Assembly: GCF_003704095.1 (NCBI RefSeq)
Contig: NW_020844152.1
Location: 248,001 to 312,000 of the forward strand
Length of the DNA stretch: 64,000 bases
Direction: 5' to 3'
DNA from: Pocillopora damicornis
Lineage: Eukaryota
The notes under the pieces were generated by a model. It saw nothing but the letters and a program-made list of their open reading frames with translations, ran no database searches and had not been told where the DNA came from. Positions 17,833 to 45,100 of this stretch are shown here, one piece after another (position 1 is the first letter of the stretch; every line of letters begins with the position of its first letter). The position numbers and the translations under genes were made by a program.

Positions 17833-30713
<12,881 letters not shown>

Positions 30714-30784
30714 TTTAGAAAAAGTAATTAAAAAAACCCTCTAAGTACGAAATAAGTGCACAGTTGGCTGAAGAAACGACAAAA

Positions 30785-30792
30785 TTCCCGCC
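30785..30792. promoter_or_regulatory. E2F-like site upstream of RTEL1
   Basis: TTCCCGCC ~70 nt upstream of the ATG; CRE palindrome TGACGTCA at ~30877-30884. Confidence 0.4.
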
Positions 30793-31977
30793 ATCTTTGA
30801 CAAAGTTTTTCGAACAGCAGCCAAGCCTCCTGTCCTTGACTCCAGACGCCTGGGTAAGTAAAGGCGAAGAATCATGTGACGTCATTAAGGGTGTTCTTTC
30901 AGTGGACAGGATCGGATTGAGCATCACAACTTTTCCCACGTTAAAACAACCTTGCAAAGTAAGTTTTTGCTGCACTATCAGACAATAAGTCTTTTATAAA
31001 TGAATGCATGTTACGGTTAAACATGGAGCCTGAACAATTTAAGGACATCAGTGACAAACTCGGTTGCACTTCGTGCGCCTCTTATGGTTCTTGCCACATT
31101 TAATTTTATGAGTGCTTGACGGTTCCAAGAGCGACTGCAAAGGAGGCTATGAAATGCACAGCGACACAGAGTCTACTTGTTAAATTTTTTTAATTCAACC
31201 CTGCAGGAACAGGGAATATTGGTCATCATAATCATCCTAAACGACTGAGAACCAGTCTCTTTGGAGCAAGGTCAAGTCGTGCGTGTAAATGACCTTCTTC
31301 AGGGATTTACTTTTGTCAACCTGCGCTTCTTACTTCACCCTCAAAGTGAGCCTCGGGTCTCTGACAAAAAAGTAAATGAATAAGAAAAATGACTTTACCT
31401 CTCTTGGATCATGAGCACATACCATAGTTTACTTCTTTTTACTACTGCTGTAGCTTTTTAATTGCAAGGTAGTTTAGGTTTAATAGGAATTATCACATTC
31501 AGCAAAAACTAGAGATATGGTGCTGCCTAACGTTGGATGGATGTGAACTTCTCTGTTTCCAAAAGATATTTCTGAGATAGGTGTAAAACAACAGTTCAGC
31601 ATCGTTACTGATGATACTCAGTGCATTTCTTTTAGTCTACATGGTTACTATCTAGATTCATTGTCCTTTTAAGTTCCTTAGGTCACTCCCTCTCAGAGAA
31701 AGACTTCTTTAATTGAATGGAAATCCATACGAGATAATCAGCAAACAGTGATACACAGAAGGAGTAGAGTATCATTTTCTCTAAGGTCACTGTCCAAAGT
31801 GAGAATGAAATAAAAGCCACAATAGAGCAAAAGGAACATCTGTGAAAAAGCTATACAACTCCTCCTTACTAGCCTCCTACTTTCAGAGGCATGCAACCAG
31901 TTATATGTTTTCTTGTTTGATAAATATACTTCTATGGAGAACTTTTCAGTGAAAAGGAGAGTATTATTTATGATTTC

Positions 31978-32278
31978 TAATAGGATACATGAAAAAAGTA
32001 CTCAGTTCTGATTGGTTAAGATAAATGCAGTAATCAGGTAATTCAATGCAGAAGAGGTTTAATGCACTTGATGCATGCGTTTTGCATCTGCATAATTATG
32101 ATAAGCTATCTTGTATTTTTTCATGTATATTATTATGTAATCGCATGATTTTGAGCATAATTTGGAAGAAATAAGCACAAGTAAAGTTTTTCAAAGACCA
32201 CAAGTTAGTTTGTTAGTATTCGTGAAAATTTACTCATGCTTATTTATTCCAAATTGCACTCAAAATCATGTGATTACC
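31978..32278. mobile_element. Two abutting palindromic MITEs
   Basis: 31978-32135 TIR taataggatacatgaaaaaa / ttttttcatgtatattatta; 32137-32278 TIR gtaatcgcatgatttt...aatttggaa / ttccaaattgcactcaaaatcatgtgattac. Confidence 0.75.
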
Positions 32279-32719
32279 AATGTAAATGGGTTAGGCAATA
32301 TTTTGTCAATATTATGAGTTCAAGAAACAATTCTTTCTTAGCAAAATCATGTTTGAATAACCAAAAATCTCTCAATTTTGAAAGATCAACCAGCTCTTGC
32401 AAGAGACCGCCAAAGAATGTCTCAATAGTTTACACCCAATTTGTGGAGAAATGTTCAAAATTTATTCGCAAACTAATTTACTTTAATTGTAACATTTGAA
32501 TCCTTGGATGGAAATCCTTATTGATAAACACAACAATATACAATAATATTTAAAGTTTGTTTTCATTAACTATTATCATTAAGTTTAAAGCGAAGTATCA
32601 AATTTAACAAGACAACATGAAAAACTTTTGAAAACTACAGCCTTGTAACCATGTTTTCAGGGAAGGATATTAGATAGGGTTTGTGCGACAGGTGATGGTC
32701 ATGACTCAATCTCTGTTTA

Positions 32720-34212
32720 TTAACCCTGAGCTTTCTCAGCTCTCTGTGTCTTAACTTGGTGGTAAACCTCCTCTACATGCTTGTCATGTGCCTCCAATCT
32801 TTCTTGTAAAGCTCTGAGCAGTGCATTGCGTTTCTCCTCTGATTGTTCCAGTTTCTGCTGTAACTTCTGTTTGCAAACTTTGCTTTGTTCCTGAACAAGA
32901 GCATCTACAAGTTGCCGTGCTTGCTCAATCTTCTGAGACTTAAACTGCAGTCTCTCCTGCAGTGAGCGGATCAAAGCTTCTCGCTTCTCTGTAGTTGTTT
33001 CCATCTTCTGCTGCAAGTTAACCTCAGCTATTTTGGATTGCTTCTCAATACTCTCTTGTAAAGAAGCCAACACTTCTTGAATGCGCTTTTCATGAGCTTG
33101 CCAACGTTCCATCTGAGCTTTGCGGTGTAACTCAAGGTTTTCCTTGCTTACAGCTTCTTTTTGTTGAATCTTCTCTTCTGCTTTTTTAGAAAATGATGCA
33201 ATGATCTCTCGCAGGTTTGCTTGCACTTCTTTGATGTGTTGTTCTTTTGCGTGAAGGCGGCTGTACAACGCCTTAATCTGGGCTTCCTTGTTTTCAGAAT
33301 GTGTACACATCTTTTGTTTGAGCTTTTCTTCTGCCATTCTACTTTTCTCTGCAACTGTCAACAGTTTATTCTGCTGAACTTGAACAACGTGTTCACTTCT
33401 GCTAGCAGCTTTGGCCAAAACTTCACCTTCAATACTCTGTTGTAGAGATGAGATAAACAGATGCTGAATGTGGCTTTTAAGTTGCCTCACAACCTTCTAT
33501 TACATGCAAAATCATTTGAGTTCTTTAAATTTTTTTGGCAGATAAAAAGAGGGCCCTTTTATCACTTAGTCCTTTGATCTCCTCTGAGGTGCCAGGGATG
33601 AAAGACATAACTTAATTTGGTTGTAGGAGCTAAGCAGCACATAAATAACTACAGATGAACCTAAATTAATTAAAGAGTGATGTAATCTTGTTAAAATCCG
33701 AAAAAAAAAAAACACTTCAACCCGTCGTTCAACCCTTCAGTGTTGTAAATATGTTAGAAATATGTCCCTTTTATTTAAAAATTTTCAATGTTTGCCAACT
33801 GATCATGAACAATTCCGGTGAGAGCAGATGGATGAAAGCTGAAATAAGCGTATTACTTTAATTTCTACTGGTACCTGGGTTTTTTTCCTCTAAAATAGGT
33901 AATCTTAAGGAACTCTAACCTTTCTTCGTTTTTCGGCTGCTAGCTGCTTTTCTACCAGCAGCTGTATGTTAAAACTTTCTTTTCCTTTCAATGGAGTTAA
34001 TCGCGGCTTCCTTGCATTCTCCACTTTGGGACTCAACATGACTTCGAAAGCTACGCTGGTCCCAGTACAATTGCCTGCTTGTTCGCAGAATAACATAAAT
34101 GAATTAAGAGTATGGAACAGAACATAAAGCCCACCGATAACCGATTACAACATTCTTCCACATTTAAAGATCTTAGAAACTCTGGCTCACCTTGAGATAC
34201 TACAGACGCCAT
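32720..34212 (-). CDS. Stathmin-family protein with five tubulin-binding repeats (~297 aa)
   Basis: Exons 34212-34191, 34074-33920, 33436-32720; stathmin head TSVAFEVMLSP, Pro/basic linker, LAAEKRRK/SIEGEVL, MAEEKLKQKM...ENKEAQ...HIKEV, continuing with 51-aa periodicity. Confidence 0.9.
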
Positions 34213-34915
34213 TTCACAGATTCAAATTGAACTGGCGGTAACTTTTTTAAATGTGATGCTATTACTTCAAGTAAAACTGCGCTTCTTCAACACGATAACA
34301 AAAAACAGAGTCTTTCCAGTAAACGAACAACAGCTAGCTTCTAGTTCCTCAAGTCTCATAAATGGCACAACCAACGTACGATCCAACTGACAAATGTAAA
34401 GGGCCTGGTCGCGTGTTTCAAATTCCTCCCATTTTCACGTGATTTTGTAGTAGTGATTTGATTGGCCAAAATGTCTTTCGCAAAGCGCGAAACTACACCT
34501 GTGTGACTGTGTGGTCTGTAAGTAGAATGGACTGCCTCTTTCTGCTTACATATGGTTATTGTCTTGAAACAATTTATTTTTTTGTTTGGCTTTGTGTTTT
34601 GTTGTTGTTGTTCCCTTTATTTATTTATAATTCTGTTGACAGAAAAGAATTAAGATTATATATGCACGTTCTGATGAGTCAACTACTTGTATTTTTTTGG
34701 ATTGGTAAAGCCACGGAAAACTTGAACCTTGTTACACTTTGACAAGTCTTATAACCTAGCATTTAATAACTGGCCTCAAGGGAAACAGCGAGTTTTGTTT
34801 CCCCGAAACCTTTAGTGCCCTTCTCCTCCAATCGGTAAAAGTCCTTTAATTGGGTTGGGAGGTATGACAATAAATATTGTTTGTTTTATTTATAGCTTGA
34901 ATAGAAACACGGAAT

Positions 34916-36606
34916 ATGGCAGCTGGGTTGCGATTTCTTCCTAAGCCTTGGCGCTTCCTTCATCAGTTGAACACTGAATTCAGCCGCCTTCCGAGAACTG
35001 CTATCCCAGCATGCAGGCTGAGTAGTACAACCTCTAAAACTCTCCTAGGTGAAGAAGCCCAAGCCGAAAATTGGCGACGCCGAGTTGATCTAGCAGCTTC
35101 TTATCGCATCTTAGAGAAGTACAACTTACATGAAGGGGTGTGTAATCATTTGAGTATGATGGCTCCTGCGGCAAATGGAGACGGTGAGGTGATGTTAGTC
35201 ATTCCATATGGACTGCACTGGAGCGAGGTATCTAATCTTTTACTATCCTTTATGAATGAAGAATCTTCTTCATTGCACTCCTGCTTTTGGCATACTGTTC
35301 TGAAGGAGATATACGATACACGCATACCAGGAGTGCCCCTATAATAAAATTTAGAAGCACATTCTGTGTTCAGACGAGTTTAAGGCAAAGGCAAAATCGG
35401 CCTGGGAGATTGAGATATTTCGGGATCGGCTTGGTGCCACGCTAATTGTGACAATGGTATTTTTTATTCTGATTCATAGTTGTTTGTTTTAAAGGTTAAA
35501 GCCTCTTCATTTGTTGGCTTAAATGTCAAGCGTGAAGTGGTCGAGGGAGAAGGTGAAGCAGACATAGCTGCCTCTACAATTCACATGGGAGTTCATAGAG
35601 CTCGACCAGATGCTGTTTGTGCCTTCCACGTACATCCACCATACTGCACGGCTTTAGGTATCTTTCCAAATTGTCATCGATTTTTCTTAATATCGTTGGG
35701 ACGAGGATTCCCCCGCGTAGTCGAAATTTTGCTTGATCGTATTTTAATCGTTTTAGCCGATGATTTTTGTTTCTTTTTAGGAACCTTAAAAAATCCCGAG
35801 CTTGGAATGCACAGTCAAAACGCCTGTATGTTTTACAACCAAATTGCTTACGATCGAGTGTACAGTGGGCCAAGTGTAGATGAGGAAGAGGGCATGCGCA
35901 CAGCAAAACAGCTTGGGGACAAGTCGGTACTGTTTATGTGTAATCACGGGGTACTAGTGGTGGCTCCTAATGCTGCAAGAGCTATGGATCATACTTATTA
36001 TCTAGAGCGTGCCTGCATGAACCAGGTTAGATTTGCCGAATTATTATGAATTATTCCTGCTATTACAAAAGTAGGGATCCATGATTTATTCTCTCGCTGG
36101 CACCATATGTGCAAGGACATGAGGACTATACAGGTGATGAATTCCCAAGTATTATCATTTGAATCAGTCTGCCTATTCACAGTGCGAGGTCCGAGACAAT
36201 AGCGTTCTAATTATTTAATGAACTAAAATCTATGACAACAAGCTATGATTAATTAAACTTCGGAAGTCACCCCTAAGTAAGGGAACTTTTAGCAACATAG
36301 AGTAAGAAATTTTGTAGGTGAGCACAACGCATTCGTTGGGTGACGGCCTCATCAAATTTGTGCGCACCAAGCTAAAGTAAAAGGAACCTTTCCGAGAGAT
36401 TGATGGAAACTTTAACAAGAGTTTCTTTCTTTCCTTAGGTCCTGGCAATGTCGACTGGACAAGAATTGTTTGAAATACCGGACGAAGTAGCCAAGTTTGC
36501 ATATGAACAAATTGACGGACCAGGAATAAGACAAAAATATTGCGATGCTCATTTTGAAGGCATGAAAAGAATTCTCTCCAAGGAGTGTCCCGACTTCATG
36601 GAATAA
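34916..36606 (+). CDS. Class II aldolase/adducin-family metalloenzyme with predicted mitochondrial presequence (295 aa)
   Basis: Exons 34916-35227, 35495-35657, 35781-36025, 36439-36606; RVDLAASYR...HEGVCNHLS...PYGLHWSEVKASS...IH...HRARPDAVCAFHVHPPY...NHGVLV...YYLERAC..QVLAMSTG; metal ligands HxH and NHG present. Confidence 0.92.
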
Positions 36607-37205
36607 GCAGTCATGGGCCATGAAGTTCATCTCCCTTATGGGAGAAATTGACTTGGTTGGCTTTTTTTTTTTCATAAACTATCAGTGACTGTTTGCAGTA
36701 TCTTACAAAAACTTAGCCAGAGTGTTGAACGGTTTTCCTCATGTAGTAAACTTCAAAACGATCCTGTTTTGTCGTTGTTGTTTGAGGTTTTGTGTTTTTA
36801 CTTCGACATATATTCACATAAAGTATTGAATTGCTCAACAAACGTACAGCTAAAACAGCGTATCAGCTAAATGTGTATACCTTTTTTTCCAGTGATGGTC
36901 CGAGAACTTCTACATTTTGCCCTGAAAATAGCGCAGATTATACTTTAGTAGAGCTTTTTTGTATTGATGGAAGAGAATGTGAATCTAATGTCGGGTTATA
37001 GATAAGACATCAAATAACTTAGAAGTTGCAAATAAAAGATATTTTGTTGTACCTGGCGAGCTTAATAGCCCACACTTTCGAAGCTTTACCATGACGCGGC
37101 TAGCGAGCTGTTTCTGCTTTTAACCCCAAGATGAGTTGAAAAAAGATTGAACAATTGAAAGAAAAAGAATTCATACATATATATTTTTATATATACATAA
37201 CAGGC

Positions 37206-39041: not shown

Positions 39042-42000
39042 ATGAGTGCTGAAATAGATACGCACATAACGAAGAAGTATGAAATCAAGAAACGTTTGGG
39101 AAAAGGAGTAAGTAACTGGCTTTTATCGTTGAGATTTGGCGCAATGCGCGCCATGTTTCACCGCAAGTTATCGATTTGCCGGCGAGTTCGCTCTTACTAA
39201 GTTTCACGATGTTTGTAGGCTTATGGAATCGTCTGGAAAGCTATCGATCGACGAACGGGAGAAGTCGTTGCCGTCAAAAAGATTTTTGACGCTTTTAGAA
39301 ACCAAACTGACGCTCAGGTATGTGTTGTACATAAATTTTGCCGCGTGATGTACTTTGGACGCTATTTCTATGAAATATTTGGATCTGTAAAGAAGAGTAC
39401 TCTCCTGTATGAACCACTCGAAATTACGGAATTGTAATTATTACTCATCATTGTGTTATACTTTGTATTACAGAGAACCTTTCGTGAGATTTGTTTCCTT
39501 CAGGTATGTAATTTAAATAACTAGTGAAAATTTTTCGTAGAGGAAGTTATATTTTTGTACCGCTGTAGTCTTTCATTTTCTGCGCGAAATGTTGATTTCC
39601 GTGTCCTGTGTTTATTCCAGGAATTTGGAGATCACGACAACATCATCAAACTGCTAAACGTAATAAAAGCAGATAATGATAAAGACATCTACCTGGTTTT
39701 TGAATATATGGGTAAGTTAATTTTTGAATTAATTGTGAGTTTTGAATCCCAATCATAGAATTTGTTCATTCAACTTTAGGGTTTTAGTTGAAACCATGAT
39801 TTTGTGATACATACATAATTTTTATGAACCGACATTAAGTTGAGCCTTGGAATATTCCAGTTCATATTGCTTAAAATCAGACATTTCGTTCAGGGCCAAT
39901 AGCCGACTCGTTTAGCTTATGCTAAAATGGGATCGCGTCTGTTTCCTATCGTGTTTTGGTAATTTGCATGTTCGGCCTCCTTCGATTATATTGAGTAATT
40001 TCCTTCGCTCTAGTTCTCTTAGTTTAGGTGAGCATGCCGAGTATCTTAGTTTCAGAGCCGATATTCGAGGAAGCTAGTGTAATTCTATGGCCTAACACTA
40101 AATAACACACAACTTTCTACGTGAAAAGAATGAAATTTGTTCACCAACGATGAAGCATCGTGCTTTTTTATTAATCATAACATTCGGTAATCCGTGCAAT
40201 TCATTATGCTCTTGAATTCGTGACAGATAAAGAAGAAAAGCAAATCAACAATATGGTATTTTGAGGGAATGTCTGGTTTCTGACATTTTCAATATTATGT
40301 ATTTTGGTGTGTTATTTATTCATATTTCTAGAACTTGTGTATTGTGATTTGAACGTTTAATATTCATAATTCTTAAGGGGTTTGGATTAACTCATCCCTT
40401 TGGAAATTGTACAAGAACTTGTGGCTGCATGAGTGCTTCAGTGCACAAGTGTGATTGGACTAGATCTATTTTCAGCTTGCAAGTCAATAATTTTAACATT
40501 AATTTCTCTAAGTTTTAAGAGTACTCCACCTAAAGAGCAAGGGTAATACAAGTTTATGAACTTTCTTTCAGTTGTCAAACTTTCAAGCACAGTTCGATTT
40601 GGATTGCAAATTTTCTTCATCTATTATTATGATTTTTAAGTGCATGGACATGAAATACTTGTATGATGAACGATCCTAAAGACAGAACCATTTGTAACCT
40701 TTTTCTCTATTTTAGTCCCTAATAGCTTTTCAAATTGTCATTTTTGCATTCCATTTCACAGCTTTGTGGTCAAATCCTAGTGTTAGCACCTGTAAGCCTT
40801 ATGGTACATCACTTACAACTATGAAAGGATGTAGGAATTTTGACCAGTGATTTACATCATCAGTTGAAATAGTTAACACATTTATATCAAAATTAGGAAT
40901 TAGCTGTGTTTTTTACACTTTTGATTTTACTGACAGATACTGATCTTCATAATGTAATAAAGAAAGGAAACATTCTTAAAGATATACACAAAAGATATAT
41001 TATGTATCAGGTAAGGTACTTCAGTTTAATAAATTAGTATAAAGTTGATTACAGGTGGAAAACAGTTGTAACTTCTCCTGAAGAAGACACTAAGGAATCA
41101 TAATATTGTATCATTTAAATTTCTATGCATTTCAATTCTTAATATTAAGCGGGAAATTGTACCTGTCAGAGTTGGGTTTATTAACTTGCCTCATACATTT
41201 ATTGAAGACCATTATGGCAATTATTTTGAAGAGTAGAACTCTTGCATAAATCTAAGTGCTCTAAATGGCTGAAGATCTTTGAAGAACTTTTCCCAGAAGC
41301 TTTTAATTAACTTAATTTATTGTCAAAGGAAGGCATCAAGCGTGATGTGCTTTTCTCGCCAATGATCAATATTGTTTGAGAGTTTTCTGTATTGTTCAAT
41401 GGTCATAAGACAAAATTCTCATTTTAAAATCTACTCTGAATTTTTTGTGCTTTCATTCTCTGGATACAAACATTATTTTGTACTCACAAAACTTTGAAAA
41501 TCATCTTGAAGGTTAAATTTAAAATCTTGATGTATAGTTGGAAATTATCATCTCATTATATGAGGGGCTGTTTAACATCAGTGGACATTATATTTATCAT
41601 AACGTACTAGTCATTTTTAAGATGAACAAATGTGCCTTCACATGTAAGAATTTATGGATTGCTGATCATGTTTTATTCTGTTCTTGGCAAGTTGTAACAT
41701 CTTTGGAATGTTTTGGATGGTGGTATTATTCGCCCCTTTAATGGTAATTAGTTCCTTCTGTGACATCAGGAGGGAGAACCCTCCATTTTATCAGCAGTAT
41801 ATTGGATATATGGTTTGTAATATTGTGATTATTTGTGCTGCAGATATTTAGGGCAGTTATGTACCTACACTCAGGAAATGTCATACACAGAGATCAAAAG
41901 GTATGATAATAATTCATAGTACATCTTCCTAATTTTCATATTTGTTCTGCAAAGCTGAGTGGTATTCAAAAGATTTTTTTGGCTTAACATGCAGTGGAAA

Positions 42001-42108
42001 GTATGCTGAAAAATTATAGTATAACATGTAACTTTTCAAAATGTAATTCATCATCCAGCAAATAGGGATTATAGTAGGGAGAGGTTGTTGATGGAATACC
42101 AAATTCTC

Positions 42109-42144
<36 letters not shown>

Positions 42145-45100
42145 GAGATGTATGGCAGCTAGAAGAGAGAAACTGTAATCAGACTGTGGAAGTTGATGGG
42201 ATTAAAATTATCTCAGGATTTGTTTAAAAAGGCTTGGCAAATGAGTCGAAAAGCAAGTTTACAAGGTATTCTTAATTTTCTTTCAGCCAAGTAATGTCCT
42301 CCTGGATTCAGAGTGTTTTGTTAAGGTAAGTCATAAATTTTTATCAAATGTTGCAAGATTTCCAGCTAGAATGGTAGGAATAAACTATGATTTATGATGT
42401 ACTCCTTCTTTAGCACATTCATTCACATTCATTCTAATATACAGATGTAGTGCTGTTGTTGTTTTATTGTGTTTATATACTCAAAGAATATTTTACTGTA
42501 ACATGCCAGGTTTGTTGAATGAAAATAGCAAGGATGAAAAATACTCATTTTAGGCAGGATTCATAGTATTTCTATTTACCTGATTGATTAAATTGCACGT
42601 TGCAGATGTGTGACTTTGGTCTAGCTAGATCAGTTACCAGTATGACGCAAGAAGCTGGTGATCCAAGTTTAACAGATTATGTGGCAACACGCTGGTACAG
42701 AGCTCCTGAAATTCTGCTAGCATCACCAAGGTAAAGCAAGAGAATCTCTTCATCTTTAATAAGTTCAAGAGCTTTAACTTCATATTTCTAAACGTGTCTG
42801 ACATAGTGTTAACTACAATCATTGTAAAAATTATTTTATCATTTCTTCCTCTCAGGTATACAAAGGGTGTAGATATGTGGTCTCTAGGATGTATTTTAGG
42901 AGAGATGCTTTTAGGTAAGTTCAAAATCTGTCACTTGAAGAACTTACTTGATGCTCACCTCTCTCCTCTCATTGTCATTTTTTCAGCTGAATTTTTTTCT
43001 TCGTTCATAATCCAAAAGCTTTAGTGTGGCATTCAAATTATCACAGTCAGTCAATTGTATGTGAAATACTGGTAATTCAGTTTAAGGCTTGGCTTCCATT
43101 CAGTTAAGAGTATCTGAACCACCCAATTGGAGTAGAGGGAAATTCTAACTTGTATTTGTTTTTGTAAAAACTGAAGAAGAAATCATCTTTACCCGTACTG
43201 TATTTTGCATTTTTTATTAACAATTGTACTATGGTTGCAGGGAAACCAATATTTCCAGGAACATCAACTTTAGATCAAATAGAGAAAATTATGACAATAA
43301 TCCCAACACCATCTAGACAAGGTAATGTTGCTGTTGGCAAAATCCCTCATTTCTGTGATAGTGTGAAATTGCAGTTTGTTGTCAGTGGTAGCTAATGTTA
43401 CACCCATGGTTTTAACTCCTTTGCTAAGGAGGAAATTAATTTTTTGTCATTTTCTTCTGAAAATTACTTGCTGTTACAGCTGTATTAACATGATCTTTCT
43501 TCTGTGTATCATAGATATTGACAGCATCAAGTCACAATACAGTTCATCAGTGTTAGACAGAATGACCTGCAAACCTAAGAAAAGTCTTGAAGAAATTCTT
43601 CCAAATGCACCACCAGATGGAATTGATCTGTTGAAAAAACTACTTCAGTTTAACCCTGACAAGCGACTGACAGCAGAGCAGGCTTTAAGTCATCCATATG
43701 TAGCAAGATTTCACAACCCTGAAGAAGAACCATCAATGGACTATGATGTGATTCCTGCCCTGAATGACGATGTTCAGTTAAGCGTGGAGGAGTATCGTGT
43801 TAAACTTTATGAGGTTGGTTTGAGGCTTAATTTCAGCTTGAGTGTCACGAAAGAGTCTAGTTTTGAGGCGGGATTGTTTAAAAAGTGACTGTAGTTATTT
43901 TAATAGCTTTGGACTTTTCAGTTGAAATTTTTTGTGGTAAATTTTGTGACACATCTTAGATGGTATACTCATTATTAACCTCTCTTTATTGTTTTTTTGG
44001 CAGAGTATCATTCAGAAGAAAACCACCATCAGAAGAAAAAGAAGGGAGATTTTTCTTCAGGATCAGAAGCAGAAACATGCACAGGCTGCTGAGCAAGCAA
44101 GGCAGCAGGAGAGGGAGTCTCAGCCCCTCAAACAAGTTGAAAACTACACTCATACTTCAAGCATCACTCAAGCACACCAACCCACACACAGCTCACCAGT
44201 CAAATCACCTGTTCATAGGAGTGAGGGAGTGACTGTAGCTTTTGGAAGAACTACCAAGATACAGCACCAAAGATCACCTTCTGCTGGAAAGAGCATGGTG
44301 AGAAGGCACAGCTTAGAAAATGACAGTGTAAGCACAGTTCAGTTGTCTAGTCAGCTTTTACTCTTTCCTTAACCTTCATCTCTCTTAATTATTTTGTATA
44401 CCTTCAAATCACAGAAGATTTGTTTCCTGTCCTTACAGGTTATGTCCCCACCAAGGCAAAACCCAGCAGGACGTGCAAGGCCCATATCTGCACAAGTGAA
44501 GCCCAAGAACACCATAATCACACGTAGTAATAGTGCTGACAAACTTCTACAAGTGACAAGTGCTCGCCTCGTAAGTTTTCAACTGATCTTACTCCTTATT
44601 CTCAAATCTAATTACCTTGCATGCTAGTCTTGAGAACATATTTTGCTATTTAACACAGTGTCCTGTATAAAGTATTTTACTTGTATCACTTGTTCACTTG
44701 AAGATAATGTAGTCCCATCTGTTCATTCATTGAGTGAGTTGAAGGGTTAGATTAATCAAAGCAGGAGTTGTTGTAAGAATGAGGCTATTCCCTTCTTTCT
44801 GTTTTATTTGCTTGTTTTCATTTTTACCTCTTATTTTTTAATTTGCGATATATATTAGTTTTCCAGTCTTCTTCCTCATTAGTTACCCATATTGGTATGG
44901 ATAGGAACTTGATCTTGTTGCACTCTCTAATGGTCCTTTAACCTACTGTATATGTGTAACTTGAATTTCATAAGTAACCTCCTTGTTTGGTTCTTAGGTT
45001 CCAGCTCAAAGACCTCCTTCAGCTAAAGCAATACACAGACCAGCCAGGAAACCTGTCCCCAATCCTAATCTGAGTCGATCCCCTTTTGAAAGTTATGCAC

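Follow-up and report, generated by a model that had tools for sequence, protein, structure and literature searches.

Stathmins with more than two tubulin-binding repeats are known from invertebrates, and a stathmin complex with four tubulin dimers has been engineered. Lachkar et al. (2010) reportedly found three or four repeats and binding of up to four tubulins in Drosophila Stai and surveyed other invertebrates; the title of that study (J Biol Chem 285:11667) reports high and variable stoichiometries. Passages in PMC7491153 describe a cap that blocks the longitudinal face of alpha-tubulin and a helix that keeps the dimers curved, and they state that engineered stathmin-like domains bind one to four dimers. 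The four-repeat domain R4 (PDB 4F61) comes from Mignot et al. 2012, as cited in parts of PMC7491153 and PMC8944587, and a passage of the latter uses 4F61 as the reference for relaxed protofilament shape. PMC11238091 defines a further clade, STMND1, by its lipidation motif, MGC, together with an extended N-terminal region. For Cnidaria, a table of Nematostella apical-organ genes names a single coiled-coil gene as 'Stathmin 4' and gives no analysis of repeats. We found no publication on a five-repeat or coral stathmin, and the figures or supplement of Lachkar et al. could hold a cnidarian case.

We analysed a window of 64,000 nucleotides from the coral Pocillopora damicornis (contig NW_020844152.1, positions 248,001 to 312,000); all coordinates below are those of this window. 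The first-pass annotation had placed a stathmin with five repeats at 32720..34212, and these positions proved to be the exact limits of the coding sequence. Judging from the sequence and from structural models, we consider it fairly probable that the gene encodes a soluble tubulin-sequestering stathmin on which as many as five alpha/beta-tubulin dimers would line up in a single row, curved and capped. Such a protein lies one step beyond the known series. Since complexes of engineered domains with one to four dimers are already solved (PMC7491153; 4F61), the finding is less surprising than was assumed at first.

Gene structure, transcription and neighbouring genes

The coding sequence is on the minus strand, with its ATG at 34212 and its stop at 32720, and consists of three exons encoding 297 amino acids. 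The coding part of exon 1 (34191..34212) encodes residues 1-7 and ends one base into codon 8, and RNA contigs extend the 5' UTR to at least 34428. Intron 1 (34075..34190, 116 bases) and intron 2 (33437..33919, 483 bases) both have GT..AG ends. Between them, exon 2 (33920..34074) encodes the putative cap strand VAFEVMLSP, a proline-rich linker with S22-P and T34-P-L-K, and the first half of repeat 1. The coding part of exon 3 (32720..33436) encodes residues 60-297 and the stop, with the remainder of repeat 1 and repeats 2-5, so that most of the protein lies in one exon, as had been noted. In RNA contigs the 3' UTR reaches at least 32245.

Both intron junctions were present in RNA contigs from all four runs of the first set, which came from four studies. 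In a second set of four runs, one of them common to both sets, intron 2 was found in three and intron 1 in three. The N-terminus supported by RNA is MASVVSQG. A start inside intron 1 (MLFCEQA), as drawn in some gene models, was rejected, because RNA contigs join exon 1. An identical 297-aa protein is already in the protein database, and its 90% cluster contains Pocillopora and Stylophora records of 297 and 298 aa, which differ by one Ala at the intron 1 acceptor. The acceptor is tandem (AAG CAG, 34075-34080, minus strand), with a second AG three bases upstream, and use of this AG would explain the 298-aa isoforms of both genera. An assembly artefact or a pseudogene was rejected as well, given the spliced RNA contigs, the orthologues and a pN far below pS. 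The locus is a real, expressed, spliced and conserved coral stathmin gene.

The entire gene is nested, in antisense, in the first (5' UTR) intron of a gene with a class II aldolase/adducin domain assigned by Pfam (intron 30959..34895, plus strand, GT..AG). That gene (30896-30958 and 34896-36608, plus strand) has a far 5' exon, and its 30958-34896 joint was seen in two of four RNA runs, both from one study. The far exon and the first exon of an RTEL1-like gene (30611-30840, minus strand) are arranged head to head, which suggests a shared promoter. The RTEL1-like helicase gene (about 21400-30840) lies downstream of stathmin, likewise on the minus strand, and the listed RNA contigs of four runs contain no joint between the two. 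A gene model of Acropora cervicornis fuses stathmin and RTEL1 into 1157 aa; the fusion is probably an annotation error, and it shows that the gene order is conserved. A short stretch in an RTEL1 intron (29794-29955) draws a very large number of RNA contigs whose loose ends vary, and it is probably an abundant coral interspersed repeat. On the other side, a MAP kinase gene (about 39200-44400, plus strand), the pieces of which we take to resemble MAPK15/ERK7, follows the aldolase-domain gene.

Stathmin identity and five repeats in register

The Pfam Stathmin model (PF00836) matched the protein with 132.1 bits (cut-off 24.7, E 1.7e-38), confirming the proposed family. The match consists of four stretches, the first of which spans the cap and two repeats; four stretches therefore fit five repeats in all. 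A sequence search of the PDB returned 22 sequences, all of them stathmin-like domains, with the engineered R4 as the best (4F61_I, E 8.9e-16). AlphaFold2, run with an alignment of 22 rows, gave a disordered N-terminus and one helix from residue 44 to 294 (mean pLDDT 82, pTM 0.34). The eight best Foldseek matches of this model were RB3 chains, and no match reached E 0.001. VAFEVMLSP aligns with the second strand of the RB3 cap hairpin, of which the first strand is short here; in the free model, pLDDT stays <50 over residues 1-43. Taken together, the sequence evidence supports stathmin identity.

When the genome was searched with the Pfam model, it yielded the five-repeat locus and one other gene only. 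This second family member is STMND1-like (G000:C2218, about 116100-117800, minus strand; 30.5 bits) and has the N-terminus MGCSASK and an acidic linker; the repeat profile described below found no run of further repeats near it.

Three candidate phosphorylation sites, S22-P, T34-P-L-K and RRKS60, all lie within the first 60 residues. S22, T34 and S60 are putative equivalents of human S25, S38 and S63. Anemone orthologues retain only the candidate site S-P-L-R. In human stathmin, the N-terminal phosphorylation sites given in a passage of PMC5037901 are S16, S25, S38 and S63.

The five motifs quoted in the first-pass annotation begin at residues 75 (HVVQV), 126 (HIKEV), 177 (RIQEV), 228 (KIEQA) and 279 (HVEEV), and the spacing of exactly 51 residues, counted there by hand, was reproduced throughout. 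Self-similarity of the protein peaked at lags 51, 153 and 102 (1.31, 0.99 and 0.99 per residue, respectively); in 1000 shuffles the best lag of 20-109 had a mean of 0.08 and a maximum of 0.42. Prolines are confined to positions 23, 31 and 35, so the helix is proline-free, as had been claimed.

We scored the repeats with an ungapped profile of 39 positions built from 243 repeats of 103 other proteins, where 'other' means not recognisably coral or anemone. These were 97 of 114 representatives (17 rows, namely coral- or anemone-like proteins, short fragments and the engineered R4, were dropped) and six proteins from another search. The core of repeat 1 (residues 42-80; 33374..33973, split by intron 2) carries RRKS60 and scored 21.2 bits. 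Repeat 2 (residues 93-131; 33221..33337) scored 36.4 bits, repeat 3 (residues 144-182; 33068..33184) 32.3 bits, repeat 4 (residues 195-233; 32915..33031) 37.1 bits and repeat 5 (residues 246-284; 32762..32878) 45.0 bits, all on the minus strand. The best out-of-register window reached 6.6 bits and the maximum of 500 shuffles was 10.0 bits, so that all five repeats stand clear of the controls. Repeats 2-5 are identical to one another at 13-23 of 51 residues. Repeat 1 belongs with the divergent first repeats, shares only 2-8 of 51 residues with the others and lies at the bottom of the range of first repeats in four-repeat proteins (20.8-47.6 bits). The recurring AEEKL-type pattern described earlier thus holds for repeats 2-5 and fails for repeat 1. 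At the position of Ser60, repeats 2-5 have Ala or Leu.

Several orthologues bear automatic names of RefSeq type, such as golgin subfamily A member 6-like, calponin homology domain-containing, cingulin-like or CEP164-like, and the long charged helix would also suit a generic coiled-coil protein that has lost tubulin binding. The hydrophobic periodicity speaks against this reading. Its power in the helix was 29.3 at a period of 3.64 (51/14; 99% null 19.0), and the engineered R4 shows the same period; at the heptad period of 3.5 the power was 7.1, below the mean maximum of the null (13.3). Other kinds of helix bundle would still be compatible with this result. Stathmin was moreover the sole Pfam family at E up to 0.01, a cap strand and linker are present, and the top Atlas matches, obtained with a near-identical protein as query, were stathmin clusters (0.93-0.94). 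We regard a generic coiled coil as highly improbable.

The information content of the profile has its maximum at 100 degrees, corresponding to one helix face. Conservation at 12 key positions was not significantly enriched over the rest in any repeat (p = 0.06-0.97), and a test for conservation on one helical face gave p < 0.05 in only two of 15 group-by-repeat cases. The prediction is one long uninterrupted helix of ~250 residues, which would measure ~38 nm (7.65 nm per repeat) and carry only one hydrophobic stripe. The suggested five-dimer arc is thus compatible with the modelled geometry, which combines one helix, the 51-residue register and the period of 3.64.

Possible tubulin binding and the third repeat

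By analogy with the family, the N-terminal strand would cap the first alpha-tubulin, and each repeat would add one dimer, head to tail, in curved form. Dimers held curved cannot enter a microtubule. At 7.65 nm per repeat, five dimers would occupy an arc of ~40 nm. Phosphorylation near the N-terminus, at S22-P, T34-P-L-K and RRKS60, may weaken the grip on tubulin, as in related proteins. The sites are probably unequal, repeats 3 and 1 being the weaker ones; occupancy may therefore be graded, at about three to five dimers.

The weakness of repeat 3 is seen at position 17 of the core, which is Arg or Lys in 235 of the 243 other repeats (several of the eight exceptions look like faulty gene models). 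Here it is Leu160, accompanied by Glu153 and Trp171. All 18 orthologues from corals and anemones (19 rows less one near-duplicate) have Leu, Thr, Ala or Ile at position 17 of repeat 3. In 10 of 10 corals this repeat has Glu at position 10, which is Leu, Met or Ile in 231 of the 243 others, and Trp at position 28. Its key positions are less conserved than the remaining ones (0.43 vs 0.58) and diverge more between corals and anemones (identity 0.23 vs 0.44), and its mean score across orthologues is the lowest of repeats 2-5 (23.1). Since repeat 3 is without the near-invariant Arg and repeat 1 has the lowest score, fewer than five tight sites are possible. All this would fit a true stathmin with four or fewer tubulin-binding repeats, in which repeat 3 or repeat 1 serves as a conserved spacer or as a site for another partner, with 2+2 dimers or a similar arrangement.

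Other features of repeat 3 run against that arrangement. Its score of 32.3 bits is within the range of third repeats elsewhere (27.9-53.6), and it retains the 51-residue register, the hydrophobic stripe and Lys152, which is kept in 18 of 18 orthologues. A dimer between bound neighbours would presumably also gain tubulin-tubulin contacts. Of five regions compared, repeat 3 had the lowest pN (0.095, with pS = 0.735; seven non-independent pairs from seven coral loci of few independent lineages). We quote pN and pS alone, because synonymous sites are near saturation and dS of repeat 2 was undefined. On sequence grounds, repeat 3 is no decaying spacer.

We also modelled residues 134-190 with one dimer of animal-type alpha- and beta-tubulin stand-ins, without alignments; the stand-ins are 90-99% identical to the tubulin exons of this genome in intron-free segments. 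The complex scored 0.79 (best of three controls, 0.00), the runs agreed in at least 95% of contacts and the partner pLDDT was 83. Of 78 solved pairs, 51 attain the mark used for this score, as do 2 of 108 mismatched ones (for eukaryotes, 71 of 105 and 2 of 126). In the model, which supplies the structure prediction with tubulin that had been proposed, repeat 3 is predicted to lie alongside a single dimer, in register with the repeat. Contacts were at 108-112, 152-163, 197 and 409-414 of alpha-tubulin and at 102-110, 153-160 and 400-404 of beta-tubulin, surfaces which we take to match the stathmin groove. Leu160 faces residues 410-412 of alpha-tubulin. The first-pass annotation had foreseen that extra repeats might lack contact residues; this applies to the Arg of repeat 3, yet the model has contacts at 11 of the 12 positions most conserved in the profile. 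With hundreds of tubulin-RB3 structures already solved, the pass may reflect what the predictor has learned from such complexes, and it shows likeness to stathmin, not binding. Weighing both sides, we think four or fewer sites a possible but rather unlikely state, and we keep to the reading with up to five dimers.

Short contigs in assemblies of bacterial isolates carry full-length, intronless ORFs for animal-type alpha- and beta-tubulin, which most likely stem from contamination with eukaryotic cDNA. Scans of viral contigs gave no full-length tubulins.

The main role could also go beyond buffering, either through an avid grip on peeling protofilaments at microtubule ends or through a curved five-dimer oligomer that is kept after phosphorylation releases the cap. 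Candidate phosphorylation sites are confined to the cap and repeat 1, with Ala or Leu in place of Ser60 further on. A passage in PMC7491153 states that a helix without the cap still inhibits assembly and yet permits curved assemblies. Corals, in addition, hold the exact 51-residue spacing four times, and none of 26 other proteins with at least three repeats has three successive 51s. Sea anemones, however, tolerate spacings of 47, and plain sequestration accounts for every observed feature; a main role of this kind therefore seems quite improbable to us. The fuller proposal appears unlikely too: that this is the highest-capacity natural stathmin and a ruler for a curved five-dimer protofilament of ~40 nm, controlled at the cap and repeat 1 alone, so that phosphorylation would do more than release dimers: it would uncap an intact oligomer or make the protein bind avidly to peeling microtubule ends. 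Unless the oligomer does remain uncapped and intact, the mechanism of the family is unchanged by a sequestering protein with up to five dimers.

Distribution and comparison with known stathmins

The survey combined a single-sequence search of 50% representatives with three word-index searches, all among proteins of up to 564 aa; the word-index search with the broad alignment returned 21 proteins. Five repeats were found in records of Pocillopora, Stylophora, Porites, Montipora and Acropora, in two further transcripts and in the sea anemones Actinostola, Actinia and Exaiptasia. The five-repeat stathmin is thus common to stony corals and sea anemones and not peculiar to this genome. Among the 103 other proteins, four have one repeat, 73 have two, six have three, 20 (including Mytilus stathmins) have four and none has five. 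The number five therefore stands apart, as had been supposed, but is less surprising beside so many four-repeat proteins. Survey matches included no octocoral, hydrozoan or Nematostella-named protein, which is no evidence of absence.

The spacing is 51,51,51,51 in corals, 47,51,51,51 in Actinia and Exaiptasia, and 47,51,47,51 in Actinostola; in the 26 other proteins that have at least three repeats, the commonest is 51,47,47 (8/26). Across 18 aligned coral and anemone relatives, repeats 2-5 are free of indels except for one 4-residue gap in one anemone. In a tree of repeats (19 proteins, 76 rows, 39 columns) all first repeats formed one group (100/99). Coral and anemone copies grouped together for repeat 2 (99/91), for repeat 3 (98/91) and, more weakly, for repeat 5 (97/72), and repeat 4 was left unresolved. 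This grouping implies that the five-repeat layout is likely older than the split of corals and anemones. The tree does not tell which duplication gave the fifth repeat; repeat 3 joined repeat 5 with just 92/73.

If these readings are true, natural stathmin stoichiometry would rise from four, the number reported for Drosophila, to five, and the expansion to five would be placed before the coral-anemone split. With its exact spacing, the protein would be a natural scaffold for a curved protofilament of defined length, five dimers against the four of 4F61, and repeat 3 would be a natural test of the need for the near-invariant arginine of the family. Annotations are corrected as well: only some UniRef or GenBank entries of orthologues carry the name Stathmin, and the golgin-, cingulin-, CEP164- and calponin-homology-like names are misleading, as the fusion to RTEL1 probably is.

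In comparison with known systems, the coral protein shares with vertebrate STMN1-4 and RB3 (T2R complexes, e.g. PDB 3RYC and 4I4T) the putative cap strand, the proline-rich linker, the 51-residue spacing, a divergent first repeat with AAEKRRK and a Ser at the presumed Ser63-equivalent position. It differs from them in having five repeats instead of two on a predicted helix of ~250 residues, in having no lipid-anchor or membrane-targeting N-terminus, and in the missing Arg of repeat 3. With STMND1 it shares the stathmin-like domain, but its N-terminus, MASVVSQG, has neither the MGC motif nor the extended region of that clade. Like the multi-repeat stathmins of invertebrates (Drosophila Stai, Mytilus), it has more than two repeats behind one cap; it has one repeat more than these, and its spacing is exact where 51,47,47 is their commonest pattern. 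As repeats 2-5 lie in one exon, exon skipping cannot alter their number. The engineered R4 (4F61) shares both the exact spacing (46, 97, 148, 199) and the helical period, but R4 is an artificial protein of four repeats made from pieces of RB3, whereas the coral stathmin is natural and its five repeats have diverged.
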